From assembly GCA_038848185.1 (NCBI GenBank), contig JAWCNV010000013.1, positions 1 through 56,356 of the forward strand: 56,356 nt of DNA, read 5' to 3'. Below are positions 38,760-55,748 of this stretch, piece after piece. The position numbers were made by a program, and so were the translations under genes. Position 1 is the stretch's first letter. Each line of letters opens with the position of its first letter. This stretch comes from Thermoproteota archaeon (GTDB lineage Archaea; Thermoproteota; EX4484-205; JAAOZP01). The notes under the pieces are model-generated. The model did not search any database. It was not told the DNA's origin and worked only from the letters and a program-made list of their open reading frames with translations.

Positions 38760-38784
38760 TGGGTCTGTACAGCTCTATGCCGAA

Positions 38785-40248
38785 ATGTCGTCTAGGAGCG
38801 AAAGCGTTTCGAATTTGATGAAGAGGATTGCTGAAGAAGGAGTTAGGTTCATCGACTTACAGTTTACTGATGTTCCTGGCCGTTTGCAGCATGTTACAGT
38901 TCCGGTGGGAAGGTTTTCCGCTAAGTATTTTGTTGAAGGCGTTCCGAAGCTTGACGGTTCTTCAATAAGGGGTTTTGCCGAAATATTTGAATCAGACCTT
39001 GTTTTAAAACCGGATCCGTATACGTTTGCAGTCATACCTTGGGGGAGTGTTGAGAACAGGTGTGCAAGGTTTCTCTGCGATGTTTACGTGGGATATGGTG
39101 GTGGTCGGTTGTCCAAGGATCCCAGGTTTGTCGCGCAGAGGGCTGAGGAGTATGCTTTGGAGCACGGTTTCTCCTCATACTGGGGTCCTGAGGTGGAGTT
39201 CTTCGTCTTCAAGAAGGCTACGTGGGATGTTTTAAATCCTTATAGGGGGCAGTCCTACTTTATTGAATCGCCTGAGGCAGCTTGGTCTTCCGGCGACGGG
39301 TATCCGATCAGGTTTAAGGAGGGATATTTCCCAGCTCCTCCACATGATAGTCTGATGGAGTATCGTTCAACCGTTGTGAGGCTTATGGAGGATTACTTTG
39401 GAACAGCCTGTGAGGCGCATCACCATGAGGTTGCTACCGCTGGGCAAGGAGAGATAGACATGGTTAGAGATAGGCTGGTTAAGATGGCTGACAACGTTAT
39501 GACTTTGAAGTATGTTGTTAAGAACGTTGCTTTCCAGCAAGGTATGGTTGCAACGATGATGCCTAAGCCGATTTTCGGGGATAATGCGAGCGGGATGCAT
39601 GTTCACGTCAGCCTCTGGGGCGACCCGCCTTCAACCAAGGTTGAGGAGGAACAGCTTGTAAACATGTTTTACGATGCTGAGGATAAGTATGCTGAGCTGA
39701 GCCAGCTTGGAAGATACTTCGTTGGAGGCATGCTTGAGCACAGCAGGGCTCTTACGGCGATAACCAACCCTACGACGAACTCGTATAGGAGGCTTGTCCC
39801 AGGTTATGAGGCTCCTGTCTTCATAGCTTGGAGCAAGGCTAATAGGTCTGCAAACGTCAGGATACCGGTCTATGAGAAGGGTGCTGAAAACGCTGCTAGG
39901 AAGAGGGTAGAATTTAGAACTCCAGACCCATCATGCAACCCTTACCTATGCTTCGCTGCAATAATGAGTGCGGGGCTTGACGGGATAAGGAGGAAGATTG
40001 ATCCGGGTGATCCTGTAGACGAGAATATTTACCATCTTACTCCTGAAAGGAGAAAACAACTAGGGGTAAAGGAGCTGCCTGGAAGCCTTAAAGAGGCGGT
40101 TGAATGTCTTAAGAGCGATAAGGAGTTTCTGAAACCGATTTTCTCGGATGAGCTGATAGAAACGATAATCGAAAACGATTTACGTGACCATGTTCAAGTA
40201 TCTGCAAGAACCCACCCATATGAATTTTACCTTTACTTCGACATATAA
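38785..40248 (+). CDS. glnA: Type I glutamine synthetase (GSI-beta-like insertion)
   Basis: LDGSSIRGF, GPEVEFF, HHHEVA, MPKP..GDNASGMHVH, NSYRRLVPGYEAP, NRSA.VRIP, RVEFR.PDP; start reset to ATG 38785. Confidence 0.97.
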   Translation: MSSRSESVSNLMKRIAEEGVRFIDLQFTDVPGRLQHVTVPVGRFSAKYFVEGVPKLDGSSIRGFAEIFESDLVLKPDPYTFAVIPWGSVENRCARFLCDVYVGYGGGRLSKDPRFVAQRAEEYALEHGFSSYWGPEVEFFVFKKATWDVLNPYRGQSYFIESPEAAWSSGDGYPIRFKEGYFPAPPHDSLMEYRSTVVRLMEDYFGTACEAHHHEVATAGQGEIDMVRDRLVKMADNVMTLKYVVKNVAFQQGMVATMMPKPIFGDNASGMHVHVSLWGDPPSTKVEEEQLVNMFYDAEDKYAELSQLGRYFVGGMLEHSRALTAITNPTTNSYRRLVPGYEAPVFIAWSKANRSANVRIPVYEKGAENAARKRVEFRTPDPSCNPYLCFAAIMSAGLDGIRRKIDPGDPVDENIYHLTPERRKQLGVKELPGSLKEAVECLKSDKEFLKPIFSDELIETIIENDLRDHVQVSARTHPYEFYLYFDI

Positions 40249-40273
40249 ACTTGCGACTTATGCTTGAATACTA

Positions 40274-40828
40274 ATGACTGAACCAGTAAGGATTACTTGT
40301 GCACTTGACGAAGAAACCGCAAAGCTGTTAGATATAATGAAGGATGAGCTTAAACTTTCTAGAAGCGAACTTATTAGGAGGGCAATCAAGTTTCTTAACG
40401 AAAATAAGGGCTTTATGCAAAACGATATGAAACATAGGCTTGAAATCATGTTAGACATGCTTTTTAGTGAGGAACATGTTATTCTAGATATTGACCATTG
40501 GCTTCTTTTCCTTAAACTGATTGATTCTCTTCCTGATAAAGAAGTCTTCTGGAAAGAACATGAGGGAATTGCAAAATCTCATGCAGACCAGTTTTTAAAC
40601 AAAATGTACTCGGCTGAAAATGTTTTTAAGCGTCTAGAAGCATGTAACCTTCTGAAAGTGACTAAACTTTCTAATACAGATTTCACTCTTATCCTTCGAT
40701 CAGAAGCCTCTAAAGAGTTTATTAAAAGATTTATCCAAAGCCTATTGAGCCATATGGAATATAATGTGAGCATTCAAGAAGACCTGACGAAACTGCGTGT
40801 GAACATAATAAAGCTCAGCAAACTATGA
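40274..40828 (+). CDS. Ribbon-helix-helix (CopG-like) regulator with C-terminal domain
   Basis: VRITCALDEE...SRSELIRRAI RHH motif, followed by EEHVILDIDHW segment. Confidence 0.8.
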   Translation: MTEPVRITCALDEETAKLLDIMKDELKLSRSELIRRAIKFLNENKGFMQNDMKHRLEIMLDMLFSEEHVILDIDHWLLFLKLIDSLPDKEVFWKEHEGIAKSHADQFLNKMYSAENVFKRLEACNLLKVTKLSNTDFTLILRSEASKEFIKRFIQSLLSHMEYNVSIQEDLTKLRVNIIKLSKL

Positions 40829-40932
40829 TCAAGAGATATAATTCGCTTTTAATATTTTTTCACAATTTTTATTAAAGTATCTCAAATAGATTTAAAAATA
40901 TATTATATTGGGGGCTATCGGTGAAATGAAAG

Positions 40933-41712
40933 ATGCCGAAACTGAAAAAAACTAGGTCACAAGAATTAGAACAAACCGAATTAATAAGTAAAATAAAATG
41001 GATTGATCTCGGTATCGAAGGTCTGACTAACTTTATACCAGGTCTGCCTAGTGGTGACGCTATATTGGTGAGAGGAGAACCCGGTACTGGAAAGACAATC
41101 CTCTGTCTTCAATTCTTACATAAAGGCGCCGAGAAAGGCGAGAAATGCATATACATAACCACGGAAGAAACTCCAGAAACAATTTTGAGAACAGGTAACG
41201 AACTCTTCCCGGACTTCCAAGCTTTAGTAGAAGAAAAACAAATCGTTGTAGTGAACTTATCTATTAGTGCAAGCTATGCAAGCGAATACTCCCTAATTAG
41301 TAAAGAAGAGGCTGTAGAGATACTTATTAGGGGGCTTAATACCCAACCAAATGCAAGCAGGATTGTAGTGGACTCTCTCTCATCACTTGAGCGAAGACTA
41401 GCAGACCCTACTGAATTCAGAGAGATTTTCATGAAGCTCCTTTTAGAAGTTAAGAAAAGAGGAGCCACAACAATATTAACAGCTGAAGGCATACCAGCAA
41501 ATCCGGATATTACAGAATATCTTGTTGACCATTTAATATATCTTGATTATCATAAACATGATGTCGTTTGGACAAGAGTGTTCGTTTTAAGAAAATCTAG
41601 AAGTGTGCCGTTAAAGCCACAAATATTAAAATTGAACATAGAGAAAGGAGGCTTGTCTGTAGAAGAAATTCCGATTTCGTTAAAACCGGTGTGGTTCGCA
41701 AGTAAGCTGTAG
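40933..41712 (+). CDS. Single-domain KaiC/RAD55-family ATPase
   Basis: GIEGL...GLP.G, Walker A GEPGTGKT, YITTEE, Walker B IVVDS, EYLVD, KSR finger. Confidence 0.9.
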   Translation: MPKLKKTRSQELEQTELISKIKWIDLGIEGLTNFIPGLPSGDAILVRGEPGTGKTILCLQFLHKGAEKGEKCIYITTEETPETILRTGNELFPDFQALVEEKQIVVVNLSISASYASEYSLISKEEAVEILIRGLNTQPNASRIVVDSLSSLERRLADPTEFREIFMKLLLEVKKRGATTILTAEGIPANPDITEYLVDHLIYLDYHKHDVVWTRVFVLRKSRSVPLKPQILKLNIEKGGLSVEEIPISLKPVWFASKL

Positions 41713-41722
41713 GTGATGTAGA

Positions 41723-43045
41723 ATGTCGGAAAATCCTGAGGAAATTTTTGCAGCAATACAGCAGGTTTTCATCGTAGGATGGGCACCAGTTGCCATACTT
41801 ATTATGGCTACTGCGGGCTTTGCTCTCTTATATGCGGGAATGGTACGTAAGAAAAATGTCGCCCATACTGTAATAATGTTAAATGTTGGCTGGACTCTTG
41901 CATTCATAATGTATTACTTAATTGGATTTCCTATTTCATACTACACTGATTCGCCATTTTTATCATTCCCAAAGTACCTGCCTACAATAGCAAACCCATT
42001 GCCTGCAACATTATCTGACAGCGGAGCCTACGGAATACCGCCAAGCCCATCAGGATATGGAGATTTAGCTTTATGGTTTAAAATGGCAATGTTTACAATA
42101 ACCACTATAGCGATAGTACCGGGAGCCATAGCTGAGCGGGATAAGCTGTGGGGGTGGATAATTGCAGCGGGAGCCATAGCCACGTTTCTGTATCCTGTTG
42201 TTGAGCATTGGGTATGGGGAGGAGGATGGTTAGCTCAGATGGGTTTCATCGATTACGCAGGTTCAACGGTTGTACATCTAACAGGAGGCATGTTTGCATT
42301 GGCAGGGGCTCTTGTAATAGGTCCAAGAATAGGAAAGTTTGTCGGTAAAAGTAAAGAAGCAAGGTCCTTCTTTGGACATAGTTTACCATTATCTGTAATT
42401 GGCGCATGGCTACTTGTCTTCGGATGGTTTGGCTTTAACGTAGGATCGAGCATAGCGAATACGGCTCAAACAATAAATGTCGAGTTAGCATGGGTTGGAG
42501 TTACAACGGCTATGGCTATGGCTGGAGGTCTTTTTGGCGCAGCACTGACTTCGAGAGGACACGCATTAACATCGATGGCTGGTCTACTCGCAGGCGCTGT
42601 TGCTATATGTTCAGGCACAGTGGTAATGAATCCAATATTCGCATTCATAACAGGCACCATCGCCGGAATACTCACGACATTTGTTCAAGGGTTGCTCGAA
42701 CACAAATTACATGTAGATGATGCTTGTGTATGTGTTTCGGTGCATGCAGCCTGTGGATTTTGGGGAGCAATTGCAACAGGCCTATTCAGCCTTAATATTC
42801 TCGGTGCGCATCCTTTGTATGGTGTGAATACTTTAGGCGAATGGTTAAACACCATAAGTGTGCAGTTTATTGGCGCATCGGTGATAGCAGTATGGTCAGG
42901 ATTAACGGGATACTTACTCTTCTACCTTATAAATAGGGCGGGGTTACTACGTGCAAAAAGAGATGCAGAACTATTTGGCTTAGACATTGCAGACCATAAA
43001 GCATACGCCTATCCGGAAGACGAGTTAGAAAAAGAGTTCCCGTAG
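41723..43045 (+). CDS. amtB: Ammonium transporter
   Basis: GAIAER, HWVWGGGWL, DYAGSTVVH, GPRIGKF, GWFGFN, DD...VH, ELFGLD..DH..AY. Confidence 0.97.
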   Translation: MSENPEEIFAAIQQVFIVGWAPVAILIMATAGFALLYAGMVRKKNVAHTVIMLNVGWTLAFIMYYLIGFPISYYTDSPFLSFPKYLPTIANPLPATLSDSGAYGIPPSPSGYGDLALWFKMAMFTITTIAIVPGAIAERDKLWGWIIAAGAIATFLYPVVEHWVWGGGWLAQMGFIDYAGSTVVHLTGGMFALAGALVIGPRIGKFVGKSKEARSFFGHSLPLSVIGAWLLVFGWFGFNVGSSIANTAQTINVELAWVGVTTAMAMAGGLFGAALTSRGHALTSMAGLLAGAVAICSGTVVMNPIFAFITGTIAGILTTFVQGLLEHKLHVDDACVCVSVHAACGFWGAIATGLFSLNILGAHPLYGVNTLGEWLNTISVQFIGASVIAVWSGLTGYLLFYLINRAGLLRAKRDAELFGLDIADHKAYAYPEDELEKEFP

Positions 43046-43054
43046 GTGATAAGT

Positions 43055-43210
43055 ATGAACCAAACTCAAGAAATAGGCAATATAAATGAAGCATGTACAG
43101 AAAAAGAGGAACTTAAGGCGAAAATAGAGAGGCTTGAAAAAAGAGTGGAGAGGCTTGAAAAAGAACTTCAAATGATAAAATCAAGAATTGTAGGAAGAAA
43201 ATGGGTGTAA
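43055..43210 (+). CDS. Small coiled-coil protein (51 aa, not in the ORF track)
   Basis: MNQTQEIGNINEACTEKEELKAKIERLEKRVERLEKELQMIKSRIVGRKWV; GGTGA SD overlapping the amt stop; fills the amt-PII gap. Confidence 0.75.
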   Translation: MNQTQEIGNINEACTEKEELKAKIERLEKRVERLEKELQMIKSRIVGRKWV

Positions 43211-43228
43211 ACCTGGAGGAGAGAAGAA

Positions 43229-43567
43229 TTGAAGAAAATAGAGGCAATAATTAGGCCCGATAAGTTCTTTTACGTGAAGGAGGCACTTTCTAAAGCAGGA
43301 TATACGAGTCTAACTGTTTACGATGTTAAGGGTCGTGGAAGACAAAGTGGCATAATACAAACAATTAGTGGGAAAACGATCAGGGCTGATCTTCTGCCAA
43401 AGGTTAAGATTGAAATAATTGTTGGTGATGAAGAGGTTGAGAGAGTGGTCGAAATCATTTTAAATACTACAAAAACAGGAGCTATTGGTGATGGTAAAAT
43501 CTTTGTGTCTAGCATCGATGATGCAATCAGAATAAGAACAGGTGAAAGAGGAAATCAGGGCTTATAA
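43229..43567 (+). CDS. glnK: PII nitrogen regulatory protein
   Basis: MKKIEAIIRP, GRGRQ, LLPKVKIEI, TGAIGDGKIFV, RIRTGERG; 112 aa; GGAGG SD with TTG start. Confidence 0.96.
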   Translation: MKKIEAIIRPDKFFYVKEALSKAGYTSLTVYDVKGRGRQSGIIQTISGKTIRADLLPKVKIEIIVGDEEVERVVEIILNTTKTGAIGDGKIFVSSIDDAIRIRTGERGNQGL

Positions 43568-43571
43568 CTAC

Positions 43572-43580
43572 TTCTTTTTT
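43572..43580 (+). terminator. Oligo-T tract after glnK, possible archaeal intrinsic terminator
   Basis: TTCTTTTTT just after the glnK stop; a TTTATAAG box follows before nadE. Confidence 0.35.
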
Positions 43581-43644
43581 AGCGCGTGCTAATAGAATGG
43601 AACTAATCTTTATAAGATGTTTCAACTTCAATAAATGATTAAAC

Positions 43645-45327
43645 TTGTGCAAAATTAAGATTGCTATGGCTCAGGTAAATTGTACAGTTGGAGATATTGA
43701 AGGAAATATTGGGAAAATAAGAGAATATATGAAAATGGTCAAAGGATGTGGGGCAGACCTTGTAGCGTTTCCAGAGCTAACTGTAACCGGGTATCCTCCT
43801 CAAGACTTGCTGCTTGAAAAAGCCTTCGTAAAAAGCCAAAGGAAAATGCTGTTTAAAACTATTAGAGAAAACAGCGTTTCAATAGCTGGGGTGGTTGGGT
43901 TTGTCGATTATAAGAGGGGGAGCTTGTATAATGCTGCTGCTGTTTTCAATGGGAGTAGGATTGTTAAAATAGTTTACAAAACACTCTTACCAACATATGA
44001 TGTGTTTGATGAAGCAAGGTATTTCAAGCCAGCACTGGTGAACGAGATAAAACCAGTGTTAATAGACTTGAACACGGTTAAATTTAAACTCGGCGTTGAG
44101 ATATGTGAAGACCTATGGGATAAAAAGTATGATGTGAAAGTAACTGATTTACTGGCGAATCGGGGAGCGCAGTTGATAATTAATATTTCGGCCTCTCCAT
44201 TCTACGCTGGGAAAAGATTCGAGAGATTAAAATTGTTAAGGGAGAAGTCTAGAAAGAACAGGATTCCGATGTTTTACGTTAATCTGGTTGGAGGGCAGGA
44301 TGAACTGGTTTTCGACGGGCAGAGCATGGCGGTTGACAGTTCAGGTAATCCGATAGCTATTGGTAAACAATTTGAAGAAGATTTGATAATTGCTGACATC
44401 GATCTTAAAACCGGAAGAGGTAGGAAGATCAAGCCTCCGCCATACCATAAGGAACAGGAAATGTTTAACGCTATAGTCCTCGGAATACGTGACTATTTCA
44501 GGAAAACAGGCTTCAAAAAGGCGGTTGTAGGAATGAGCGGTGGAATAGACTCGTCTTTAACAACATGCATAGCAGTGGAGGCTTTGGGAAGAGAAAACGT
44601 TATTGGCGTCTACATGCCTTCCAAATATTCTAGCCAGCATAGTAAAGAAGATGCTCAAAAAGTGGCTGAAAACCTTGGAATATGCTTTGTGGAAATCCCT
44701 ATTCAAGAAATAGTTGAAGCCTATCGAAAGGTCTTGGAGAAACCCTTGGAAAAAATAAGGCGTCGCTTCGGCTTAACGAAGGAAAGGGACGATCCCGTTG
44801 CCGATGAAAACATACAGCCCAGGATAAGGGGGAACATTCTGATGGACATATCGAATAGGTTTAAAGACTTGAAAATACTCGTTGTGAATACTGGTAATAA
44901 GACTGAACTCGCACTCGGCTACTGTACTCTATACGGGGACATGGCTGGCGGAATTGGTACCCTTGGCGATGTGAGCAAGCTTGAGGTTTACAATTTAGCG
45001 AGATATTTCAATGAAAAAGCTGGAAGAGAGATTATTCCCAGAAGAGTTTTTGAGAAGAAGCCTTCGCCAGAATTGAAGGAAGGACAGTATGATCCTTTCG
45101 ACTTCGATATTGTCAGCCCATTGGTAGACAAAATAGTGGAAGAGCGTCGGGGCAAACAGGAGTTGATAAAGGCAGGTTATCCCGAGGAGGTTGTGGAAGA
45201 CATTTACAGAAGGATTAGAAACGCAGAATATAAGAGATGGCAAGCCTCTCCTTGCATAAAAATTACGCCTAAAGCATTTGGTATCGGATGGAAGATGCCA
45301 ATAGTTAACATGTGGAAAGGACGATAG
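43645..45327 (+). CDS. nadE: Glutamine-dependent NAD+ synthetase (nitrilase plus synthetase domains)
   Basis: FPEL..TGYPP.DL, K.LLPTYDVFDE.RYF, ICEDLW, SGGIDS, ENIQPRIRG, TGNKTE, GY.TLYGD, EYKR.Q. Confidence 0.96.
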   Translation: MCKIKIAMAQVNCTVGDIEGNIGKIREYMKMVKGCGADLVAFPELTVTGYPPQDLLLEKAFVKSQRKMLFKTIRENSVSIAGVVGFVDYKRGSLYNAAAVFNGSRIVKIVYKTLLPTYDVFDEARYFKPALVNEIKPVLIDLNTVKFKLGVEICEDLWDKKYDVKVTDLLANRGAQLIINISASPFYAGKRFERLKLLREKSRKNRIPMFYVNLVGGQDELVFDGQSMAVDSSGNPIAIGKQFEEDLIIADIDLKTGRGRKIKPPPYHKEQEMFNAIVLGIRDYFRKTGFKKAVVGMSGGIDSSLTTCIAVEALGRENVIGVYMPSKYSSQHSKEDAQKVAENLGICFVEIPIQEIVEAYRKVLEKPLEKIRRRFGLTKERDDPVADENIQPRIRGNILMDISNRFKDLKILVVNTGNKTELALGYCTLYGDMAGGIGTLGDVSKLEVYNLARYFNEKAGREIIPRRVFEKKPSPELKEGQYDPFDFDIVSPLVDKIVEERRGKQELIKAGYPEEVVEDIYRRIRNAEYKRWQASPCIKITPKAFGIGWKMPIVNMWKGR

Positions 45328-45396: not shown

Positions 45397-46944
45397 TCAT
45401 TCCCATTCTATTGTTGCCGGTGGCTTATGGGTTATGTCGTAAACAACCCTAGTGACCTCTGGTATTTCATTAGTTATTCTCGTTGAGATTCCTTCAAGTA
45501 TCTCATACGGGATTTTCGCGAAGTTCGCGGTCATGGCTTCACGGCTCTCAACAATCCTCACTGCGACAACATAACCGTAAGCCCGTGCATCGCCCTTAAC
45601 ACCCGTGCTCATCGTATTGGTCAGGACAGCGAAATATTGCCACAAGTGTTCTCCCAATCCACCCCTATCGATTTCCTCCCTTACTATTTTATCAGCCTTC
45701 CTGACGACCTCAACCTTCTCCTTAGTTACTTCACCCACAATCCTTACAGCAAGACCTGGGCCTGGGAAAGGTTGTCTGGAAACTAGTTCCTTGGGCAGAC
45801 CAAGGATTTCAGCAACCCTTCTAACTTCGTCCTTATACAAGTCCCGCAGTGGCTCAACTATCTTTCTAAACTTTATGCGTGTAGGAAGCCCGGCTACATT
45901 ATGATGGGTTTTTATCTTGTCCGAAAACCTTCTGAACCCGGATTCAATCCTGTCTGGATAGATAGTTCCCTGGATTAGGCATTCAGCCCCTGTCTTCTCA
46001 GCCATTTCCTCGAAAACCCTGATAAATTCCTCGCCGATGATCTTCCTCTTCATCTCCGGGTCGACGATGTTCTTAAGCCTTTTAAGAAAACGGTCTTGCG
46101 CATCCACCATTACGAGGTTTATCCCAAACGCTTGGAAAAACCTTCTAACGGTCTCAGACTCGTTCTCACGCATAAACCCATGGTCGACGAAGACTGCAGT
46201 AAGCCTTTCCCCTATAGCCTTTGCCGCTAAAACCGTGGCAACGCTGGAGTCAATGCCCCCGCTTAAAGCGATTATCGCCTTGCTCTCATTGATTTCAAAC
46301 CTTATTTCCTCAATCATCCGGTCTATAAAATTATCCATTTTCCAATTCGCTTCGCACCCGCATACTTCGAATAGGAAGTTGCAGAGCATTTGAACACCTT
46401 TTTCCGTATGGTTCACTTCAGGATGCCACTGTAAACCGTAAATCGGTTTTTCCCTGTGTCTGAAAGCAGCAACGGGAGAGTTTTCGGAATACGCTAGAAC
46501 CTCGTAATCATTAGGGATCTTAAAGACAGTGTCGCCATGGCTCATCCAGACTTTCTCCTTCCTGTCTAATCTCTTCAATATTCCAATAGGCTTGTCAATC
46601 GTGACGTATGTTACACCGTACTCTTTTATTTTAGCGTGCTCAACCTTCCCGCCGGCGATATGGGCTATGAGCTGGTGGCCATAGCAAATACCTAGGACTG
46701 GCAGACCCAGGTCTAATATCCTAGCATCAAGCCTCGGGGCATTTTCCTCAAAGATGCTGGAGGGCCCTCCAGATAGTATTATGCCTTTAATGTTAAGTTT
46801 CTTGTCTAAAAGCCTTATTTCCTCCACCTTAGTATCGTAAGGAACGATTTCCGAATAGACTCCTTGCTCCCTTACTCGCCTCCCTATGAGATGGCAATAC
46901 TGGCCTCCGAAATCTAAAACCAGCACAGTATCGTAGCGTGTCAT
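45397..46944 (-). CDS. guaA: GMP synthase (fused GATase plus ATPPase)
   Basis: LDFGGQY, GICYGHQ, QWHPEV, SGGIDS, QGTIYPD, IKTHHNV, PFPGPGL, KPPATIEWE. Confidence 0.97.
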   Translation of the reverse strand: MTRYDTVLVLDFGGQYCHLIGRRVREQGVYSEIVPYDTKVEEIRLLDKKLNIKGIILSGGPSSIFEENAPRLDARILDLGLPVLGICYGHQLIAHIAGGKVEHAKIKEYGVTYVTIDKPIGILKRLDRKEKVWMSHGDTVFKIPNDYEVLAYSENSPVAAFRHREKPIYGLQWHPEVNHTEKGVQMLCNFLFEVCGCEANWKMDNFIDRMIEEIRFEINESKAIIALSGGIDSSVATVLAAKAIGERLTAVFVDHGFMRENESETVRRFFQAFGINLVMVDAQDRFLKRLKNIVDPEMKRKIIGEEFIRVFEEMAEKTGAECLIQGTIYPDRIESGFRRFSDKIKTHHNVAGLPTRIKFRKIVEPLRDLYKDEVRRVAEILGLPKELVSRQPFPGPGLAVRIVGEVTKEKVEVVRKADKIVREEIDRGGLGEHLWQYFAVLTNTMSTGVKGDARAYGYVVAVRIVESREAMTANFAKIPYEILEGISTRITNEIPEVTRVVYDITHKPPATIEWE

Positions 46945-47957
46945 CCTGTTCCACTAAGCTTCTCCACTAGCTTCGGAACTATTTTAAACATGTCTTCCAC
47001 TATTATGTAGTCCGCGTCCTCGAATATGGGGGCCTTAGGATCCTTGTTTATGGCTACGATAACCTTCGCGTTTCTCACGCCAACCGTATGATGCATCGCT
47101 CCCGAGATTCCGCACGCCACGTATAGATCTGGCCTCACTGTTTTACCGCTTTCACCTATCATGCATTCCGGGGGAAGCCATCCTGCATCTGTTACTGGCC
47201 GGGTAGCCCCCACCGTTCCCCCTAAGGCTTCCGCAAGCCTTTTAAGAATCCTGACTCCTTCAGGGCCTCTCGCCCCCACTCCCACTCCGACAACTACCCT
47301 TGCGTTCTCAAGCTCAGACTCCTCGGGGCCTCTTTCAACCTCGAGAACCTCCACCTTGTCATCGTCTTTTATCAGATCAACCTTAACGTGGAAAACCTTT
47401 CCCTTACCCGGGGCTTTCGCCGGAACCGGAAAGGTTCCTGGTCTGACTGTAGCGATCTGCGGCCTATGGTAGGGGGTGACTATTGTTGCGACGACGTTTC
47501 CTCCGAATGCTGGAACTATTTGATACAGGATTCTCTCAATCTTCTCACCCTTCTCCTTATCCTCGAAACAACCTATGTCTAAGTCGATGCAGTTCGCGGT
47601 TAAGCCTGTCCCAAGGCTCGCAGCCACCCTCGGCGCCAAGTCCCTGCCCAGACTGCTTGCTGTGAACAAAACTATCTCCGGCCTATGGCTTCTAATAAGC
47701 TCCGTCAGCAGCCTAGTGTACGTAAGAGTCCTGTATTCTTTAAGCGTTTCATCGTCAGCAAGGTAAATCTTGTCGACGCCATATTCAGCCAACGTGTTTA
47801 CGAGGCGGCTTACACCATGGCCGAAGAGAACCGTTGCCAATTCAACTCTGAGTTTGCCGGCTAGTTCACATGCCTTACCGATTATTTCCAACGTGCTCTT
47901 GCTGACGACGCTATTCCTATGCTCAGCATACACCCATACTCCTGAGTAGCCGTTCAT
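46941..47957 (-). CDS. etfA: Electron transfer flavoprotein alpha subunit (FixB-like)
   Basis: GRDLAPRVA..L.TGLTA.C, PAFGGN, TVRPG, GATRP, GKTVRPDLY.ACGISGA, AINKD..APIF. Confidence 0.93.
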   Translation of the reverse strand: MNGYSGVWVYAEHRNSVVSKSTLEIIGKACELAGKLRVELATVLFGHGVSRLVNTLAEYGVDKIYLADDETLKEYRTLTYTRLLTELIRSHRPEIVLFTASSLGRDLAPRVAASLGTGLTANCIDLDIGCFEDKEKGEKIERILYQIVPAFGGNVVATIVTPYHRPQIATVRPGTFPVPAKAPGKGKVFHVKVDLIKDDDKVEVLEVERGPEESELENARVVVGVGVGARGPEGVRILKRLAEALGGTVGATRPVTDAGWLPPECMIGESGKTVRPDLYVACGISGAMHHTVGVRNAKVIVAINKDPKAPIFEDADYIIVEDMFKIVPKLVEKLSGTG

Positions 47958-48757
47958 TGTTCAGCAGCCTCCAACATTATGTCATGTTCCTGCAGCCTTC
48001 TTAAGAGATTATTCACTACCTCTTCAACGCTCTCGCCTTCAATCAGAATTCTTCTCCTCTGGGCGCTTACTTTCTCGACTTTCATTATTTTAGTGGGCGA
48101 GCCTGCTAAGCCAACCTTATCAACCTCGGCACCAATATCCTCAAGAGACCATGTTACAACAGGCTTCTTAACAGCTTCAAGTATTCCTGAAAAAGTAGTG
48201 GCCCTGGGCTTATTGACATTTTTCAAAACCGTCAGCAAGGCGGGCAGCGCTATCCTAAGTTTCTCGAAGCCCTCTTCAACTCTCCTCTTTAGCACAACAT
48301 GATTTCCGTTGACTTCGAATTCCTCCACGAATGTTGCCTGCGGTATTCTCAGGAATTCGGCAAGCTCCGGACCCACTTGGGCAGTACCGCCATCGCTAGA
48401 TTCAAGTCCGCATAAGATTAAGTCATATGGCCCCAGCTTCTCAATAGCCTTGTAAAGGACATATGATGTTGCTAAAGTATCTGAACCCCTGAGCCTCCTA
48501 TCCGAGATTAAGAAAGCGTCGTCAACGCCCATTGCTAGAGCCTCTCTGAGAGCATCCTCAGCCTTAAGTGGACCCATGGAGACAGCTATCACTCTAGAGT
48601 TGAACTTCTCCTTAAGCTGAAGCGCCGCCTCTAATGCGTTTTTGTCACACTCGTTTATCACCGCCCTCGCCCTCTCCCTGTCAAGGGTTCCGTCCTCTCT
48701 CACCCTGACATACTCTCTAGGATCAGGAACCTGTTTTACCAGGACTATGATGTTCAA
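47954..48757 (-). CDS. etfB: Electron transfer flavoprotein beta subunit (FixA-like)
   Basis: LVKQVPD, GTLDR, D.NALE.A, SMGP, GSDTLAT, DGGTAQVGP, GLAGSPT. Confidence 0.94.
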   Translation of the reverse strand: MNIIVLVKQVPDPREYVRVREDGTLDRERARAVINECDKNALEAALQLKEKFNSRVIAVSMGPLKAEDALREALAMGVDDAFLISDRRLRGSDTLATSYVLYKAIEKLGPYDLILCGLESSDGGTAQVGPELAEFLRIPQATFVEEFEVNGNHVVLKRRVEEGFEKLRIALPALLTVLKNVNKPRATTFSGILEAVKKPVVTWSLEDIGAEVDKVGLAGSPTKIMKVEKVSAQRRRILIEGESVEEVVNNLLRRLQEHDIMLEAAEQ

Positions 48758-48759
48758 CC

Positions 48760-51282
48760 TTAATCACCCGTCTCATACCTGCTTAAAGCGGCAACCTGGA
48801 TCGGAACAACCTTCCTATACACTTCCTCAGGCCTCCTAACTACTCCCTTGACCCTTAGAAGGTCTTCAACCCTTATTCCGAAAAGCTTCTCGTTCTCCAT
48901 TAGCAAGGGGAGTATTCTATTCCAGTCTTCGCTCGTGATGCTTTCAATCTTCCCGCCGTTAAGCTGGTCTTCACCAACGGTCTTCCTAGGATCCCTCATA
49001 TATACTGCGCCAGCAGCAGCAAGGGGAAGGAGGTTTCCACCGTGATAGGGCGTTTCCTTCTCGACAAGCTTACCCTGCTCATCGAACCTGACCCCATTGA
49101 GTATGATGAGGCCTTTGGCAGCCATGAAGGACTCCCCCATGTAATCCATACAGGATCCGTTTATAACTGCGGTTGCGCTTCCGACAGCGTTTATCAAAGG
49201 TCTGTCTATTAAGTCTCCTTGGATAAAAGTTACACCCCCCTTCGCACCGTACTCGAATGCTTTTCCCGCATCACCGTATACGACGAGTTTCCCAGACCTA
49301 AAGCAGTAAGCAACAGAATCCTGCACGCTTCCATGCACGTAGAACTCTGGGCCGTCTGCGAATGCTGCAAGACAGTCGCCAACCCTCCCATACACATCTA
49401 TCCTGACCCTTTCCCTTGCTACGAGGCCTGCGCCGAAATTCCTCTGGCCCCTGAAGTTGTAAGCTATGAATCTTCTCCACCCGAGTCTACACGCTTCCTC
49501 AAGCAGACTGCAGATTCCTTCATCGCCTTCAGGTGGGAAATCGTAAGCATCTATCACTAGAACACTGTCCTCCCCAGGAGGTTCTGTAAGCCTTCCTTTA
49601 GAGCCCCAGTCGACCCGTCTAAACCTGCTTAGCGATGCTGTTCCTATTAGCGGCTCTCTGCTCAGAATCCTGTAAACCGCTTTCTCGAAAACGGGTATTA
49701 AACGGCTCCTCGTTACTTTTGATGGGTACCTCCTGTCCATGAGGAGTGTCAGCAAGTCCACTGCCCTCATTGTCTCGACATCGCCTTTCGCACTGTATTC
49801 TTCTAAGATTTCTACGAATGAAGTGATCTCATTGATGGACCGGTATCCAATCCTTCCGGAAAATAGTTTAAACAGTTCTGCGGTATTAAGCTTACTAAAA
49901 GCCTCCTCAACATTCTTATCCTCCACGCAGGCAGCGTCTTCTGATTCTAGCCCTGCACCGTTGAACCCCGTTTGGACAATGGTCGCTTCAACAGTCGCTT
50001 TTTTACCAAATTTATCAGTGCAGATAAGGCTCCCATGCCCATCCACAGTATATATGAAGGCTCCGCCATCAGTATAGCTTCCCCCTCTCGCGTACCAATA
50101 TGAATCCGCCATCGGATGGAACCTCTCATCATGCTTTGAAAGCTCTTCCAGCATAGCGTCTATCGCCTGCCTCTCGGAAGCGATAATCCCAATCTTAACA
50201 GCGCCCTCTTGGAGGGCGAAGACCTGTGGTCTGAGCATGGACGTGTCTGTTATACCTATTAACTGGAAAACCCTGTTTTCAGCGTCATTCCTAGCTATTA
50301 TGAAGAACCATGGGCCATCCGGTGAGCCGTGAATATGAGTGGCCTGAATGGCTTTGTATATTTTTTTCTTTTCATCCGGCAGCATTGCGAAATCCCTTTC
50401 AGTCGTGGGGGCAATCGCCTCAATCGCGTACTCCAACGGATACTTGTAGACTCTGGTCAAGAGATCCCAGTATAGGACGGCAACCTCAGTATCGGTCAGG
50501 AACAGTGGGTATATTTCTCTCTGCTTAAGATATTCTGTTATCGAGAAATAGTTAGCGAAATCACCGTTATGGACAAGGGCATCGTTTAAACCAATGAAGG
50601 GATGTGACCCTCCTGGATGCCACACCTTTCCCTTAGTAGGGTACCTCTGGTGGCCTATCCAGACGTAAGCCTCAAGGTCTTCAAGCATGTAGTATTTTAT
50701 GACTTGCTCGGCATAGCCAACGATCTTTAGAACAAACATGTTTCTCCCATGCGACAATACAAATGCCTTCTTCAAACCTGAAGTATAATACTTCCTGTTT
50801 AATGTGAAGCTATTCCTATATATGAACTCGTCCTCCATGCCTCTCTGGTTTAGCACTTGTATGCCACGTTCTTCAGCGAACTTTTTTAACGCGTCCTCAT
50901 CAACTCTGACAAAGTATCGCCAGACTTCTGGAGGCTTCACACTTAGGCCAATGCTCTTATGGTCCCTGAGTGTTGGGAGCTTTTCAAAATGTTCAATTCT
51001 CATATGCGGTTTTATGAATTCCGATTCCAGCCTCCTCCTTATGCTTGGAACCAAATAGGCTACCTGAAGCAGGTAGCAGTCCTCCAGAACCTTTTTAGAA
51101 ACACCCAGCTGCTTAGCTGAGAGTCCTACTGCAGCTATGCCACCGCCCTTACCGTTGCCCCTGTTATGCATCTGCATGAGGGGCCTAAGCAGAAACATTC
51201 CCTTTACTGGTATTGAAGAAGCCACACCGATTACGCCACAGCCACCTTCCTCAACCCTTTCTAAACCTTCCAAGCCCATCAC
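48760..51282 (-). CDS. gltB: Glutamate synthase subunit: Ntn glutamine amidotransferase (GltB1) fused to GXGXG beta-helix (GltB3)
   Basis: EEGGCGVIG (Ntn Cys after a short propeptide), RGNGKG, HQRYPT, HPF, HNGD, TDTE, DGP; C-terminal GQR.FGAG, G.VGD, GDAG, AAAG. Confidence 0.85.
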   Translation of the reverse strand: MMGLEGLERVEEGGCGVIGVASSIPVKGMFLLRPLMQMHNRGNGKGGGIAAVGLSAKQLGVSKKVLEDCYLLQVAYLVPSIRRRLESEFIKPHMRIEHFEKLPTLRDHKSIGLSVKPPEVWRYFVRVDEDALKKFAEERGIQVLNQRGMEDEFIYRNSFTLNRKYYTSGLKKAFVLSHGRNMFVLKIVGYAEQVIKYYMLEDLEAYVWIGHQRYPTKGKVWHPGGSHPFIGLNDALVHNGDFANYFSITEYLKQREIYPLFLTDTEVAVLYWDLLTRVYKYPLEYAIEAIAPTTERDFAMLPDEKKKIYKAIQATHIHGSPDGPWFFIIARNDAENRVFQLIGITDTSMLRPQVFALQEGAVKIGIIASERQAIDAMLEELSKHDERFHPMADSYWYARGGSYTDGGAFIYTVDGHGSLICTDKFGKKATVEATIVQTGFNGAGLESEDAACVEDKNVEEAFSKLNTAELFKLFSGRIGYRSINEITSFVEILEEYSAKGDVETMRAVDLLTLLMDRRYPSKVTRSRLIPVFEKAVYRILSREPLIGTASLSRFRRVDWGSKGRLTEPPGEDSVLVIDAYDFPPEGDEGICSLLEEACRLGWRRFIAYNFRGQRNFGAGLVARERVRIDVYGRVGDCLAAFADGPEFYVHGSVQDSVAYCFRSGKLVVYGDAGKAFEYGAKGGVTFIQGDLIDRPLINAVGSATAVINGSCMDYMGESFMAAKGLIILNGVRFDEQGKLVEKETPYHGGNLLPLAAAGAVYMRDPRKTVGEDQLNGGKIESITSEDWNRILPLLMENEKLFGIRVEDLLRVKGVVRRPEEVYRKVVPIQVAALSRYETGD

Positions 51283-52826
51283 CCTAAGTGATCCAGATGA
51301 ACCAGATAGTTGTACCGTCCTCTCCTAAACTTGACCTCGTCCTTCGGACGGAGCTCCCTGATGCTCCTTAAACCGAGCTTTGAAAGAATATAGTCAAACT
51401 GTTTCTTCCATGAACAGTACATGTTTATTATCCTCTGTGCTCCCCATTCAGAATCTATAAGGAGGCTTAAAGCAGGATCTGTGGTTGCTATTCCGGAGGG
51501 ACATCCTCTCCCCCTTTCACAGTTTCCACATCTCTTACATCCAAGGGCAACGAGTTCGCTTGTGCCTATCACCGCGCCATCAGCCCCAAGCGCTATTATC
51601 TTAGCCACGTCGAAGGCTGTTCTTATTCCCCCACTAGCCATTATGGTTATCTCATCCCTCACGCCCTCTCTTACAAGATAGTTGTGGACAATGGGAATAG
51701 CATACTCAACGGGCATAGCGATGTTCTTCTTAGCTACATCCGGTGCAGCCCCCGTTCCACCGAAACCCCCGTCTATCTGGAGAATATTGGCTCCTGCATA
51801 ATAACTCCCAATGGCAACCATATCAACGTCCGTGGGCGTGGATACTTTCACGGAGACGAGTGCCTTAGGATTGATGTCCTTTATCAGCTGCACATGCCTA
51901 TAATGGTCTTCTACGGAGTAAACGTTGTGAAAGGGGAATGGAGAGAAGAGGCTTATGTTAGGCACAACCTCCCTTATTTCAGCGACCTCAGGGGTAACCT
52001 TGTCAGCGAGAAGATGTCCACCTAGACCCGGCTTAGCACCCTGAGCATACTTCAGACAAACTATTCTTGCCCTCTTGATGGTTTCAGCACTCACGCCGAA
52101 GTGTCCAGTTGCGACTTGAGTTATCACGTTGTCTTTAAAGGGTATGAGTTCTTTAGGATAACCTCCTTCACCTGTGCTCGTGAACGTTCCCCAGGTCTTA
52201 GCTGCAATAGCCCTAGCAATCATAACTCTAAGGCTTATGGAGCCGAATGACATGTCGGCACTATAAACCGGGATCGGGATTACTATTTCGGGTCTCTCAT
52301 CTTTCCTTTTGTTTAAGACTATGGACGTATCAAGATCCTCAACCTCAAAGATTTCATCGAGAGTTATCTTTTCCTGAAGCTCAAAATCGAACCTTATCCT
52401 ATCAAATCCCCCTCCCGAGTCACCTACTTTAAACTCATATCTTCCAGAAGGTCTTCCACTTTCAGCCTGTTCCCAGGTTGAGAGGACGAGGTCGGCCGTC
52501 CAACGCTTGTCTCCGAGAGTAAGATACTGAGGGTTAATCCTAACTGTTAAAGCACCTGTCGGACATGCTTCTACACATCTTCGACAATCCATACCGATAC
52601 AGCGACTGCAAGCATTAGCTATGCGAAGGACCCCATCGGGCTTCTTGAATGCTTCGTATTCGATGTGGGCGGAACCTATGTACTCTGGACAAACTTCGGT
52701 GCAGATGCCGCATGCGGTGCATTTAGCTCTCTCTAAGATAACATCATACTTGTCTATGACATAAGGTTGCTTGAAGAAGGCAGGTTTCACTTCTGGTTTT
52801 TTAAAAACAAGCTTACTCTGCATCAT
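51279..52826 (-). CDS. gltB: Glutamate synthase FMN-binding subunit (GltB2) with N-terminal 2x[4Fe-4S] ferredoxin domain
   Basis: CTACGICTEVCP and CSRC...CRRCVEACP; MSFGSIS, TGEGG, QVATG.FGV, KYAQGAKPGLGGHL, SPFP.H..YSVED, DG..GGTGAAP, SGGIR, CKRCGNC...CPSGIAT. Confidence 0.92.
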   Translation of the reverse strand: MMQSKLVFKKPEVKPAFFKQPYVIDKYDVILERAKCTACGICTEVCPEYIGSAHIEYEAFKKPDGVLRIANACSRCIGMDCRRCVEACPTGALTVRINPQYLTLGDKRWTADLVLSTWEQAESGRPSGRYEFKVGDSGGGFDRIRFDFELQEKITLDEIFEVEDLDTSIVLNKRKDERPEIVIPIPVYSADMSFGSISLRVMIARAIAAKTWGTFTSTGEGGYPKELIPFKDNVITQVATGHFGVSAETIKRARIVCLKYAQGAKPGLGGHLLADKVTPEVAEIREVVPNISLFSPFPFHNVYSVEDHYRHVQLIKDINPKALVSVKVSTPTDVDMVAIGSYYAGANILQIDGGFGGTGAAPDVAKKNIAMPVEYAIPIVHNYLVREGVRDEITIMASGGIRTAFDVAKIIALGADGAVIGTSELVALGCKRCGNCERGRGCPSGIATTDPALSLLIDSEWGAQRIINMYCSWKKQFDYILSKLGLRSIRELRPKDEVKFRRGRYNYLVHLDHLG

Positions 52827-54220
52827 CCAGAATCACCAAACACCTTTTCCTCAAGCTCCTTGTAGAATATGGCTCTACCGAGCTCACCCCTCAGCCTCCT
52901 CACCTCTCTCAAACCCATTCCGCCAAGAACTTCGAGAAGCTGGTCTCTCCAAGCACTGACGAGGTTCACAATCCTTTGGGAAGCAAGGTTGATGTCTGCA
53001 TCTTCAACCCTCATCAGACAATCATCTCGATGTCTATCACCATAACACACTCTGCATCCTAATGCAAGCTGGTATGCTAATCCTATTGCAACCGCGTCTG
53101 CGCCGAGAATTATGGATTTAGGAATGTGTGCAGCCTCAGCAACTCCTCCGCTTGAAATGATAGAAACCTCGTCCCGCACACGCTTTTCAACAAGACGGAT
53201 GTGGACGCTTCGGATAGCGTTTACTATAGCATCAGGTTCCCTTTCGATAATGCATTCATCAACATGAATATGTATAATTTCTACCCCGGCTTTCGCTAAA
53301 GTTTCAGCATCCTCCGCTGCTTCATCGATATTTGAAATCCTAGTACAAACTATTATAGAAGGATTGATCTTCCTCACCTGTTTCAAATAATCCCTTATTT
53401 TCCACTCGCTTGCCTTTTCCTCTAGATAGTGTAGTTCAATGATTCGTGAGGATTCGATAAGCTTGGAGAACTCCATAATTCTGTCGGAGCGAATTCTAGG
53501 CATCAGGTTGAAAACATATGGCGATAAGTCGTCGAAGTAATCCTCCGCCTTTAGGATTGTAAAAGTGTCGAGCATACTGGCAGCCTTGGCTAGTGCAAGC
53601 GTCAGACTCCTGTCAGATGAGGAGGAGAGCGGAGCGTCGAGAATTATGGGAACAGGTATCTCAACCACCCTTGGAGGCTCTGAAACAAGCGTGGAGCCTT
53701 TGAAAACCAAGCTGGGGGGCTTCCTGCCCAGGTCTACTGTGGTTGAAATGTGCTCCCTTCCATGTATCCCGTCCCTCGTAGGTCTAACTATCTCAGAGAA
53801 GTCGAACCAGAAACCGTCGAAACCCTTGCCAGCGAACGACCCTCCATATCCTGATCCCGAAACAGGTATTCTGCCCGTTTCAGCCTCAAAGTAAATGTTT
53901 TCTATCTGCTCAGGTGTGAAGTAGGAATTTCCCCGTTTCTCAAACTCCGGATTTAATTCGACACATATTGCTCCTTTAGGACAAGACAACACGCATCGAT
54001 GACATCCATGGCACCGCTCATCAATAGGCTGAGCAAGCCTCCCGTCCTCGCCGGCTCTCTGAGCCTCGAAAACACATGCTTGTACGCACTCTTGAAGGTT
54101 CACACAGTTATTATACACTCTCACCCTAAACTTAGGAGGGCACCCTGTTTTCCAAGGGGCTTCTTTAACCTCTACATGGTACCGCTTGAAACCAGCCTGT
54201 TTTTCAGGGAATTTTACCAT
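52823..54220 (-). CDS. Second, degenerate glutamate synthase FMN-domain paralog with ferredoxin domain
   Basis: CVNLQECVQAC, CHGCHRCVLSCP, RPTRDGIHGRE, RDEVSIISSGG, LGADAV, GLREVRRLRGE; lacks TGEGG and KxAQGAKPG. Confidence 0.82.
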   Translation of the reverse strand: MVKFPEKQAGFKRYHVEVKEAPWKTGCPPKFRVRVYNNCVNLQECVQACVFEAQRAGEDGRLAQPIDERCHGCHRCVLSCPKGAICVELNPEFEKRGNSYFTPEQIENIYFEAETGRIPVSGSGYGGSFAGKGFDGFWFDFSEIVRPTRDGIHGREHISTTVDLGRKPPSLVFKGSTLVSEPPRVVEIPVPIILDAPLSSSSDRSLTLALAKAASMLDTFTILKAEDYFDDLSPYVFNLMPRIRSDRIMEFSKLIESSRIIELHYLEEKASEWKIRDYLKQVRKINPSIIVCTRISNIDEAAEDAETLAKAGVEIIHIHVDECIIEREPDAIVNAIRSVHIRLVEKRVRDEVSIISSGGVAEAAHIPKSIILGADAVAIGLAYQLALGCRVCYGDRHRDDCLMRVEDADINLASQRIVNLVSAWRDQLLEVLGGMGLREVRRLRGELGRAIFYKELEEKVFGDSG

Positions 54221-54258: not shown

Positions 54259-54288
54259 TATATAAACTTATCGGAAATTTTTTCCGAT
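54259..54288 (-). promoter_or_regulatory. glt operon promoter: palindrome ATCGGAAA-ttt-TTTCCGAT abutting BRE/TATA (TTTATATA on - strand)
   Basis: Perfect 8-3-8 inverted repeat at 54270-54288; TATATAAA on + at 54259-54266. Confidence 0.7.
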
Positions 54289-54356
54289 TAATTAACGTTG
54301 ATAATTGCCAGCAGAACTGTAACCCATAACCATAAACCGAGTTTGATTCAAGAAAC

Positions 54357-54384
54357 CGGATACATTTTCCGATACATTTATATA
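54357..54384 (+). promoter_or_regulatory. gdhA promoter: CGGA-N7-TCCG palindrome, 5 nt, TTTATATA
   Basis: CGGATACATTTTCCG at 54357-54371; TATA at 54377-54384, ending 27 nt before the ATG. Confidence 0.68.
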
Positions 54385-54410: not shown

Positions 54411-55748
54411 ATGACTGAGGAGTTAAACCCCTTTAAAAATGCTCAAAAACAGATTGACAAATGTGCTGAGGTTCTTGGTATCGATAAAGCGACACATGCG
54501 GTTCTCAGAGAGCCTATGAGAACACTTGTAGTAAGCATACCAGTCAGGATGGATGATGGTTCTGTGAAGGTTTTCACAGGTTTCAGAGTCCAATATAACG
54601 ATGCCCTAGGTCCCACCAAGGGGGGGATAAGGTGGCACCCTGAGGAGAATCTGGATACTGTTAAGGCTCTAGCAGCCTGGATGACTTGGAAGTGTGCTCT
54701 GCTCGACCTGCCTTATGGCGGCGGAAAAGGCGGGATAATATGCAATCCTAAGGAAATGAGTGTGAGAGAGAAGGAGAGGCTCGCCAGAGCATATGTCAGA
54801 GTTCTCGCGGGCTTTATAGGACCGATGAAAGATGTTCCTGCTCCAGATGTCTACACTGATCCTCAGACCATGACTTGGATGATGGATGAGTACTCAACTA
54901 TCGTCGGGTACAATGCACCTGAAGTCATAACGGGTAAGATGCACATCACTGGAGGCTCTAAGGGAAGAGAGGACGCTACTGCTAGAGGAGGAATGTTTGT
55001 GCTCAGAGAGGCTGCGAAACACCTTAAGATAGGGCTTGAGGAGAACAGGGAGAACCTGTATAAGACGCCTCAGGAACTTGCCAGTCTCCCGGATGAAATT
55101 CCTAAAGGTAAGAATATTGTGACGGTTGCAATACAGGGCTATGGGAATGCTGGTGCCCTTGCACACTTCCTTGCTACAAGGCTCTTCAAGAATGTTAAGG
55201 TTGTTGCAGTAAGCGATTCCAAGGGAGGAATATTCAACGAGGATGGGCTGCCATATGGGAAGGTTAAAGAGGTTAAAGATAAGACGGGGAGTGTCGTAAA
55301 CTATAAGCCCTCTAAGAAAATAGGCAATGAAGAACTCCTCGAGCTTCCCGTCGACATCCTTATACCGGCGGCTCTTGAAAACCAGATAACTGGGAAGAAT
55401 GCTAACAGGATTAAGGCGAAGATCGTGCTTGAGCTTGCAAACGGTCCGACTACGCCTGAGGCCGACGAGATTCTCCACAGTAAGAATGTATTTGTAGTGC
55501 CTGACTTCTTGGCTAACGCTGGTGGTGTAACGGTATCCTACTTCGAATGGGTTCAGAACCTTTCAAGATATTACTGGGACTACGAGGAGGTTTACAGGAA
55601 GCTTGACGCCAAGATGACCAGAGCCTTCTGGGAGGTTATCGAAGCATTAGAGGAGTTCAAGTCTAAGAATATTGATCCTAGAACAGCAGCCTATGTGGTG
55701 GCGGTGCGAAGAGTCGTCGAGGCGATGAAAGCCAGAGGATGGGTCTAA
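54411..55748 (+). CDS. gdhA: Glutamate dehydrogenase (Glu/Leu/Phe/Val family)
   Basis: [63 protein letters not shown]. Confidence 0.96.

Follow-up and report, generated by a model that had tools for sequence, protein, structure and literature searches.

The operon considered here occupies positions 45397-54220 on the minus strand of the window, that is, the whole 56,356-nucleotide stretch of contig JAWCNV010000013.1 (assembly GCA_038848185.1) from a Thermoproteota archaeon; it places the genes of a putative split glutamate synthase (GOGAT) directly ahead of those for the two subunits of an electron-transfer flavoprotein (ETF). Glutamate synthases are classed by their electron donor, which is NADPH, NADH or ferredoxin. 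The source is a hot-spring archaeon with a genome of 1.79 Mb in 46 contigs that is 93.5% complete, and its nearest named relatives are Thermoproteota/'Brockarchaeota' metagenome-assembled genomes (MAGs). The operon is made up of six co-directional open reading frames (ORFs); of their five junctions four are 4-bp overlaps and one, between the glutaminase gene (48760) and etfB (48757), is a 2-bp gap. This gene order, strand and set of junctions had been described in an earlier reading of the window, hereafter the original prediction, and are confirmed by the ORF coordinates.

Gene 1 (52823-54220) encodes a 465 aa subunit with a degenerate flavin mononucleotide (FMN) barrel. Pfam and NCBIfam profile searches, from which the domain content of all genes is taken, give a 4Fe-4S domain and a partial PF01645 match (E 4e-12) covering only profile positions 191-368, the second half; Fer4 matches are also seen, and the N-terminal iron-sulfur (Fe-S) domain has one canonical CxxCxxCxxxCP motif and one irregular set of cysteines. 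Genes 1 and 2 are paralogs with 28% identity (E 8e-40), gene 1 having a gap across the QGAKPGLGGH stretch and no GGTGA stretch; because both are gone, the label 'degenerate' given by the original prediction is a fair one. The AlphaFold2 model (predicted local distance difference test, pLDDT, 77.5) aligns best with residues 782-1180 of the glutamate synthase (GltS) alpha chain, its FMN domain (Z 24.6, root-mean-square deviation 3.9, 323 residues aligned), and gene 1 is therefore taken to be a non-catalytic copy of the synthase barrel; a plain Foldseek search with the model returns generic TIM-barrel matches only. A PF04898 match (30.5 bits, cut-off 22.8) suggests that gene 1 may be the counterpart of the GltB central domain, but the model fits the FMN domain best and not the central one. 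The subunit has a motif of its own at residues 133-156 that is invariant in 35 homologs from bacteria and archaea, and so it appears to be under selection. The most conserved stretch of the protein, residues 121-157 (GFDxxWxDxSEIVRPTRDGIHGRE), is yet the least confident in the model (pLDDT <50); it may be an interface that becomes ordered only within the complex.

Gene 2 (51279-52826; 515 aa) encodes the synthase subunit proper, with a 4Fe-4S dicluster (an N-terminal 2x[4Fe-4S]-type ferredoxin domain) and a full PF01645 match (E 2e-92). The protein aligns to GltB residues 856-1172 of 7MFM, 1EA0 and 2VDC (E ~1e-48); it retains the QGAKPGLGGHL and GGTGAAP stretches, both aligned to GltB and invariant in 37 homologs. 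Equally invariant in the 37 are the cluster cysteines C430, C436 and C442, which align with the cysteine stretch of 7MFM; a fourth cysteine, C433, is also there.

Gene 3 (48760-51282; 840 aa) encodes the putative glutaminase+GXGXG subunit. The GXGXG beta-helix is matched by PF01493 at 39.4 bits (cut-off 32.5), and there is a weak GATase_6 match (E 3e-4, under the cut-off), with matches to the N-terminal regions of glmS and purF at E 2e-8 and 2e-7; a phmmer sequence search gives no PDB match. The protein carries Cys15 in GGCGVIG after a 14-residue leader, as well as HQRYPTKG, VHNGDFANY and TDTEV, stretches which we take to be hallmarks of a class-II, N-terminal nucleophile (Ntn)-type glutaminase. 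By their domains and motifs, genes 1-3 together look like a complete glutamate synthase that is GltD-less and rich in Fe-S clusters.

Gene 4 (47954-48757; 267 aa) encodes EtfB, the small ETF subunit (PF01012, E 5e-45), and gene 5 (46941-47957; 338 aa) encodes EtfA, the large subunit (PF01012 and PF00766). The last gene, guaA (45397-46944; 515 aa), overlaps etfA by 4 bp and encodes the glutamine-hydrolysing GMP synthase (NF000848, 720 bits), which is not part of the glutamate synthase enzyme; it follows etfA at five loci of close relatives (L008-L011 and L013). The genome holds two PF01012 matches, both of them genes of this operon, and PF01645 above the cut-off with E <1e-10 is found genome-wide in this operon only, which thus encodes the sole GOGAT. 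The original prediction had remarked that GltD and the usual ETF partners, acyl-CoA dehydrogenase and FixC, are missing; none is found among the other 40 window ORFs of at least 110 aa or the four flanking genes, and the 93.5%-complete genome likewise has no match for the domains of acyl-CoA dehydrogenase (PF00441, PF02770), FAD-linked oxidase (PF01565, FAD_binding_4; FAD, flavin adenine dinucleotide) or ETF-QO/FixX (PF05187, PF21162). The GltD-type Fer4_20 domain (PF14691) has genome-wide a single match of 24.3 bits, under the cut-off and on another contig, and none in the window.

The operon sits in a nitrogen-assimilation island. The upstream side (37626-45327) carries NrpR (37626-38639), GlnA (38701-40248), a ribbon-helix-helix protein, a KaiC-like ATPase, Amt, PII and NadE; on the other side lies glutamate dehydrogenase (GDH, 54411-55748), divergent from the operon.

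Relatives of the glutaminase gene were collected at 42 loci from species-representative genomes. The trio of degenerate barrel, synthase and glutaminase genes is present at 35, six are cut by contig ends, and one (L049, from Methanoliparum) has a three-piece archaeal layout. At ten of the 42 loci etfBA is directly downstream of the glutaminase gene, namely in the five close relatives named above and in five Promethearchaeota/Thorarchaeota MAGs (L016-L020); five more (L012, L015, L029, L045 and L046) end at the glutaminase gene or at most 450 bases after it and are not judgeable.

Linkage of etfAB to the synthase in relatives was the test that the original prediction had set beforehand. The glutaminase gene is present in 11 of the 401 Thermoproteota genomes sampled and, within the window's genus, in 7 of 17; all six genus carriers with intact context encode, ~0.8 kb downstream and without change of contig or strand, an ortholog of EtfA (69-100% identical), whereas a contig end truncates the seventh (G171). 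Neither gene is present in the other ten genus genomes, five of them with only a ~40%-identical ETF and five without any ETF; of the 16 genus genomes that are judgeable, all 16 thus have either both the ETF ortholog and the synthase or neither. The linkage also extends to G178, from a sister family: one contig end carries the synthase, the glutaminase and a partial EtfB, a second contig end carries part of EtfB, the whole of EtfA and an FMN-binding protein of the GltS family with 531 residues, and with such contents at the two ends the ETF genes would lie between GltS-family genes across the contig break. The 531-residue protein (L058:4478-6073), which follows EtfA, keeps GQGAKAIGGE and GGGTGMSP; a homolog 62% identical to it follows the three-piece GOGAT of Methanoliparum (L049:11361-12956), and neither resembles gene 1.

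Outside Thermoproteota, 18 of 251 sampled Asgard genomes have the glutaminase gene, with etfBA directly downstream in six of the 18; four of these operons are of a Loki/Thor type and two (L155 and L159) of the window type, whose products are 65% (glutaminase), 55-58% (EtfB) and 50-52% (EtfA) identical to those of the window. A tree of 54 glutaminase sequences requires the ETF label to change three times or more, each of the three being forced by starred branches. Seven other ETF loci of Thermoproteota were fetched, and six adjoin a classical partner: acyl-CoA dehydrogenase in L060, L061 and L067, and FixC with FixX in L062 and L065 and, by gene sizes only, in L066.

We consider it reasonably likely, with a probability of about 60%, that etfBA is a dedicated electron-input module letting the split, Fe-S-rich GOGAT draw on NADH. 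This is argued from the position of the ETF genes within the operon, between the glutaminase gene and guaA; from the sharing of one operon by the only ETF and the only GOGAT of the genome, with no known ETF partner found; from conservation of the linkage in the genus, in G178 and in the six Asgard genomes, across two architectures and at least three tree changes; from the setting in a nitrogen island; and from the cassette-like behaviour of etfBA, seen in L014 below. In a physical complex of ETF and synthase, NADH would be oxidised at the EtfB-side flavin, and electrons would move on to the mobile FAD of EtfA domain II, enter the synthase subunit at its Fe-S clusters and proceed to its FMN; the FMN would reduce 2-iminoglutarate formed from 2-oxoglutarate and glutamine-derived ammonia.

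Several observations weigh against a role of the ETF as electron input. No ETF adjoins the trio at 27 of the 42 loci, a further five being those not judgeable, and 12 of the 18 Asgard genomes with the glutaminase gene have the trio alone, amid unrelated neighbours; as most trios stand without an ETF, it is an optional add-on and not a general electron input. In a Bathyarchaeia locus (L014, 67% identical) the window's flanking genes are kept and guaA directly follows the glutaminase gene, with no etfBA, so that etfBA behaves as a cassette; the genome of this locus (G653) has the trio and no ETF match at E 1e-20, and the trio must therefore have an ETF-independent electron entry, presumably ferredoxin, which may also operate in the window's organism. 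Another genome with a window-type trio, G425, has only a 44%-identical ETF, 1.1 Mb away. A metagenome scan with the EtfA alignment yields only ETFs 41-50% identical to the window's EtfA and no new linked loci, with none of 80 such ETF loci near GOGAT genes. As the genome is 93.5% complete, an unseen ETF partner is possible, and Hdr-type redox machinery is encoded elsewhere in it, given a cluster on contig C16 (~39-44 kb; L054, L056) made up of an HdrA-like protein of 811 residues carrying a fused MvhD (FlpD) domain, a protein with a CCG domain, and another Fe-S flavoprotein that is HdrA-like.

The predicted complex and the available RNA bear on both sides of the question. Complex prediction of EtfB plus EtfA residues 196-338 against the synthase subunit gives a weak median score (interaction prediction score from aligned errors, ipSAE) of 0.36, the three runs scoring 0.52, 0.36 and 0.01 and the best of three controls 0.00; at least 24% of contacts are common to the runs and the partner pLDDT is at least 74. 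Among solved complexes 58 of 80 come up to the mark used, and among mismatches 2 of 110; with scores of 0.60 or below, 7 of the 80 and both mismatches do so, and this prediction, unlike the calibration set, used its own alignments and three chains; it raises the odds of an ETF-synthase contact a little and establishes no interface. In the RNA-Seq metatranscriptome set X3 (sets X1 and X2 are probably DNA), a 270-nt contig matches 48526-48795 with 0 mismatches and bridges the glutaminase gene and etfB, 36 nt of it lying on the glutaminase side, and other contigs fall on etfA, guaA, gene 1 and gdh; these are consistent with expression, although such contigs reveal neither strand nor a single transcript and may stem from DNA carry-over. 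The raw RNA reads of set X4 gave 0 mapped reads and so carry no weight either way.

Alternatively, the trio could be a ferredoxin-dependent glutamate synthase and the ETF simply co-transcribed with it, serving a partner encoded elsewhere, perhaps in unassembled sequence: most trios lack an adjoining ETF and G653 lacks one altogether, the genome is incomplete, and guaA already shows that the operon holds a gene outside the enzyme. For the window's operon this seems improbable, given that no known ETF-partner family turned up in the genome, that ETF and synthase are either both there or both missing throughout the judgeable genus genomes, that far-removed lineages show the linkage again, at three or more changes on the tree, and that the ETF genes of G178 lie between two GltS-family genes. 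The relatives of the trio that stand without an ETF probably do run on ferredoxin. Judged from gene content across genomes, the ETF-GOGAT linkage is real, conserved and optional; the proposal of the original prediction that the ETF is the electron input of this GOGAT accordingly holds up in its conserved linkage and in the absence of the usual partners, and gives way where it would make the ETF more than an optional add-on.

The ETF itself is nearest to solved bifurcating ETFs in both subunits. EtfB matches 6FAH_B (1e-58), 7KOE_A (4e-53), 5OL2_B (4e-53), 4KPU_B (2e-45) and 7QH2_B (8e-45), and more weakly the non-bifurcating 1O94, 1EFP and 1EFV (2e-35 to 5e-25); EtfA likewise matches 6FAH_A (3e-82), 5OL2_A (1e-78) and 7KOE_B (2e-74). 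By these comparisons the window's ETF resembles group-2 (bifurcating-type) ETFs. According to the accessible part of PMC10734219, small subunits of group 2 (named EtfA there) carry the motifs RxGV, in 'most' sequences, and GxxSPTxV, and large subunits carry RPxFGG; Arg140 of Thermotoga EtfABCX lies 3.1 Å from the bifurcating flavin, and its R140Q/M variants lose ferredoxin reduction. In the window, EtfB has GLAGSPTKI at the GxxSPTxV position (GFFGSPTRV in 7KOE_A) and keeps an invariant Arg27, but the RxGV motif reads RERA. EtfA is without an N-terminal ferredoxin domain and has VPAFGG instead of RPxFGG; of 60 aligned ETFs, the six from the window's clade all have Val at position 148 and the remaining 54 have Arg, and the EtfA of G178 has Val at this position as well. 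An arginine needed by Thermotoga EtfABCX for any electron transfer from the bifurcating FAD is thus Val here, which counts against the ETF as donor to the synthase too, and since it is this essential residue that is replaced, bifurcation is doubtful in the window's clade. An insert of ~10 residues before VPAFGG in EtfA was considered as a docking element and rejected, since 19 of the 60 ETFs have it, among them that of L068, where GOGAT genes are not close by.

The other ETF-linked operons differ in these features. EtfA of the window-type Asgard operons (L155 and L159) keeps the Arg (IRPAFGG); Loki/Thor-type operons have TRPAFGG, REGI and an N-terminal 2x[4Fe-4S] domain on EtfA as in CarE and LctC, and their synthase subunits have no fused ferredoxin domains. 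In ETF-linked operons the ferredoxin domain is therefore on the synthase or on the ETF; all four combinations of ETF and fused domain occur among the trios, and so its placement follows no strict rule. The suggestion of the original prediction that the ETF feeds the built-in ferredoxin domains does not carry over to the Loki/Thor type, and nothing points to the confurcation that it had thought possible. In a quick EtfA tree the window clade and the Loki/Thor clade fall on opposite sides of a starred branch with the value 98; a single clade of GOGAT-linked ETFs is not rejected by the approximately unbiased test (p 0.48, log-likelihood difference 3.1).

The kinship to bifurcating ETFs brings in another possible mechanism, an electron-bifurcating glutamate synthase, in which the electron pair of NADH is split, one electron going downhill to the synthase and the other uphill to ferredoxin via a ferredoxin-type domain, and reduced ferredoxin is regenerated. 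The reaction would be 2 NADH + oxidised ferredoxin + glutamine + 2-oxoglutarate -> 2 NAD+ + reduced ferredoxin + 2 glutamate. The 2-oxoglutarate+glutamine/glutamate couple is within the potential range of the known acceptors of bifurcating ETFs, and in the Loki/Thor-type operons EtfA bears the CarE/LctC-like 2x[4Fe-4S] domain and the RPAFGG and REGI motifs are both complete; the window's own ETF has Val at the Thermotoga R140 position, shared by its whole clade and G178, RERA in place of RxGV, and an EtfA without the ferredoxin domain. We regard bifurcation by the window's operon as rather unlikely, a little less so than the ferredoxin-dependent enzyme with an unrelated ETF, and give it better prospects in the Loki/Thor type. 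It is likewise rather unlikely that the ETF-linked split GOGATs form a new family of flavin-based bifurcating enzymes, of which the window's clade, with Val for the key Arg and ferredoxin domains on the synthase subunits, would be a mechanistic variant.

Trios without an ETF have other neighbours that could be of redox function. At nine bacterial loci from at least five phyla (L021, L026, L030, L031, L033, L035, L040, L047 and L048) the trio stands directly after MetV and/or MetF on the same strand, and in L032 the same arrangement is seen by gene sizes only; an MvhD-like gene is also upstream in L021, L030, L031 and L040, the last with Fer4 and CCG proteins downstream as well, and stands alone ahead of the trio in L038 and L039. 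A protein of 610-680 residues with FAD_binding_4, FAD-oxidase_C and 4Fe-4S domains precedes the trio in three MAGs, two of Methanomassiliicoccales and one of Halobacteriota (L023:3294-5126, L036:790-2829 and L042:3077-5092), and is a candidate for another electron-input module. In Nitrospirota (L031-L033), ~2.7-5.8 kb downstream of the trio, there follow NrpR (scanned in L031 and L032), a second synthase-like gene and a large ORF; in L033 the latter is a GXGXG-Fer4_20-Pyr_redox_2-Fer4 fusion, a GltD-type partner.

The wiring of trio relatives to MetVF/MvhD or FAD/Fe-S proteins, together with the lack of a PDB sequence match and the sub-threshold GATase Pfam matches of gene 3, could also mean that the complex does not make glutamate, its GltS-like barrels and ETF serving another redox reaction such as the oxidation of glutamate or other amino/oxo-acids with the ETF as acceptor. 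This is very improbable: gene 2 has intact synthase-site stretches and three invariant cluster cysteines, gene 3 has Ntn-type motifs with an N-proximal Cys, nitrogen-assimilation genes are neighbours here and at many loci, and the operon is the only GOGAT candidate in the genome.

The 190-bp divergent promoter between the operon and gdh contains a perfect palindrome, ATCGGAAA-N3-TTTCCGAT (54270-54288), and a third half-site, a further copy of TTTCCGAT (54366-54373); three of the five window matches of TTTCCGAT are located there. In L008, L010, L011 and L012, CGGAAA-N3-TTTCCG lies 59-92 bp ahead of where the first-gene match begins, and on this pattern the palindrome, with its third half-site (54270-54373), is a candidate operator for a regulator. 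The NrpR operator, which we take to be GGAA-N6-TTCC, was rejected as an explanation; the window contains three matches, all of them outside the promoter of the operon, and 19 of 100 shuffled sequences match at least that well. Elsewhere in the window (21547-24947, minus strand) two adjoining URO-D-family genes and a radical-SAM gene are present, which may encode methyltransferase-type enzymes.

Bacterial NADPH-dependent GltB/GltD (Azospirillum 1EA0, 2VDC and 6S6S; Bacillus 7MFM) shares with the trio the FMN barrel with three cluster cysteines and the GXGXG domain and, probably, the Ntn-type glutaminase. The window's counterpart of the alpha chain is however split in three proteins with another domain order, an extra non-catalytic barrel paralog and fused ferredoxin domains, and the genome has no GltD that was found; the place where one would look for the reductase subunit is taken by the ETF genes. 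Ferredoxin-dependent GltS (Synechocystis 1LLW and 1OFD) is also without GltD, and the ETF-less relatives of the trio probably work in the same way, but it is a single chain with neither fused ferredoxin domains nor an ETF. Archaeal GltS is known with its domains as separate ORFs (PMC8097209), and an F420-dependent GltS with FrhB partners has been proposed, in which archaeal GltS would recruit varied electron-input modules (PMC9012536); in contrast to both, the glutaminase and GXGXG domains are fused here, there is a degenerate barrel subunit besides, and the module linked to the synthase is an ETF, which the accessible portions of these two papers do not mention in connection with either form.

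On the ETF side, the nearest known systems are Bcd-EtfAB (5OL2), CarCDE (6FAH), Ldh-EtfAB (7QH2) and EtfABCX/FixABCX (7KOE), which have the nearest ETF subunits and in which the ETF is encoded beside the enzyme that it serves, as would be the case here. They differ in their partner, an acyl-CoA dehydrogenase, FAD-linked oxidase or FixC and not a GltS-type Fe-S flavoenzyme, and in the RPxFGG Arg that is Val in the window's clade. Clostridial GltAB and Bcd-EtfAB are treated as two separate enzymes with activity as ferredoxin-NAD reductases within the accessible text of PMC9365771, and glutamate synthase is brought up only as GltD/GltA homology or in gene lists in that of PMC7325909, PMC5736913, PMC2702500, PMC6085437 and PMC11216029. 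The original prediction regarded the pairing as undescribed, with which a full-text literature search agrees: no paper on an ETF-linked glutamate synthase was found, most subscription journals being outside the reach of the search.

What is new here is a Thermoproteota clade with genus-level co-occurrence of ETF and synthase, two naturally occurring operons of which one includes the ETF and the other does not, and a clade-specific change of Arg to Val. The window and L014 provide a natural control for the presence of the ETF, and L155/L159 and the window one for Arg versus Val. The operon suggests, as far as its genes can tell, an undescribed way of feeding electrons into nitrogen assimilation. 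An ETF-coupled form, if true, would be an extra class of glutamate synthase, and its partner type would stand outside the acyl-CoA dehydrogenase, FAD-oxidase and FixC families known to work with ETFs. Should the ETF bifurcate, the large free-energy drop of nitrogen assimilation would be partly conserved, and this central reaction would double as an energy-conserving one in energy-limited anaerobes, including Asgard archaea.

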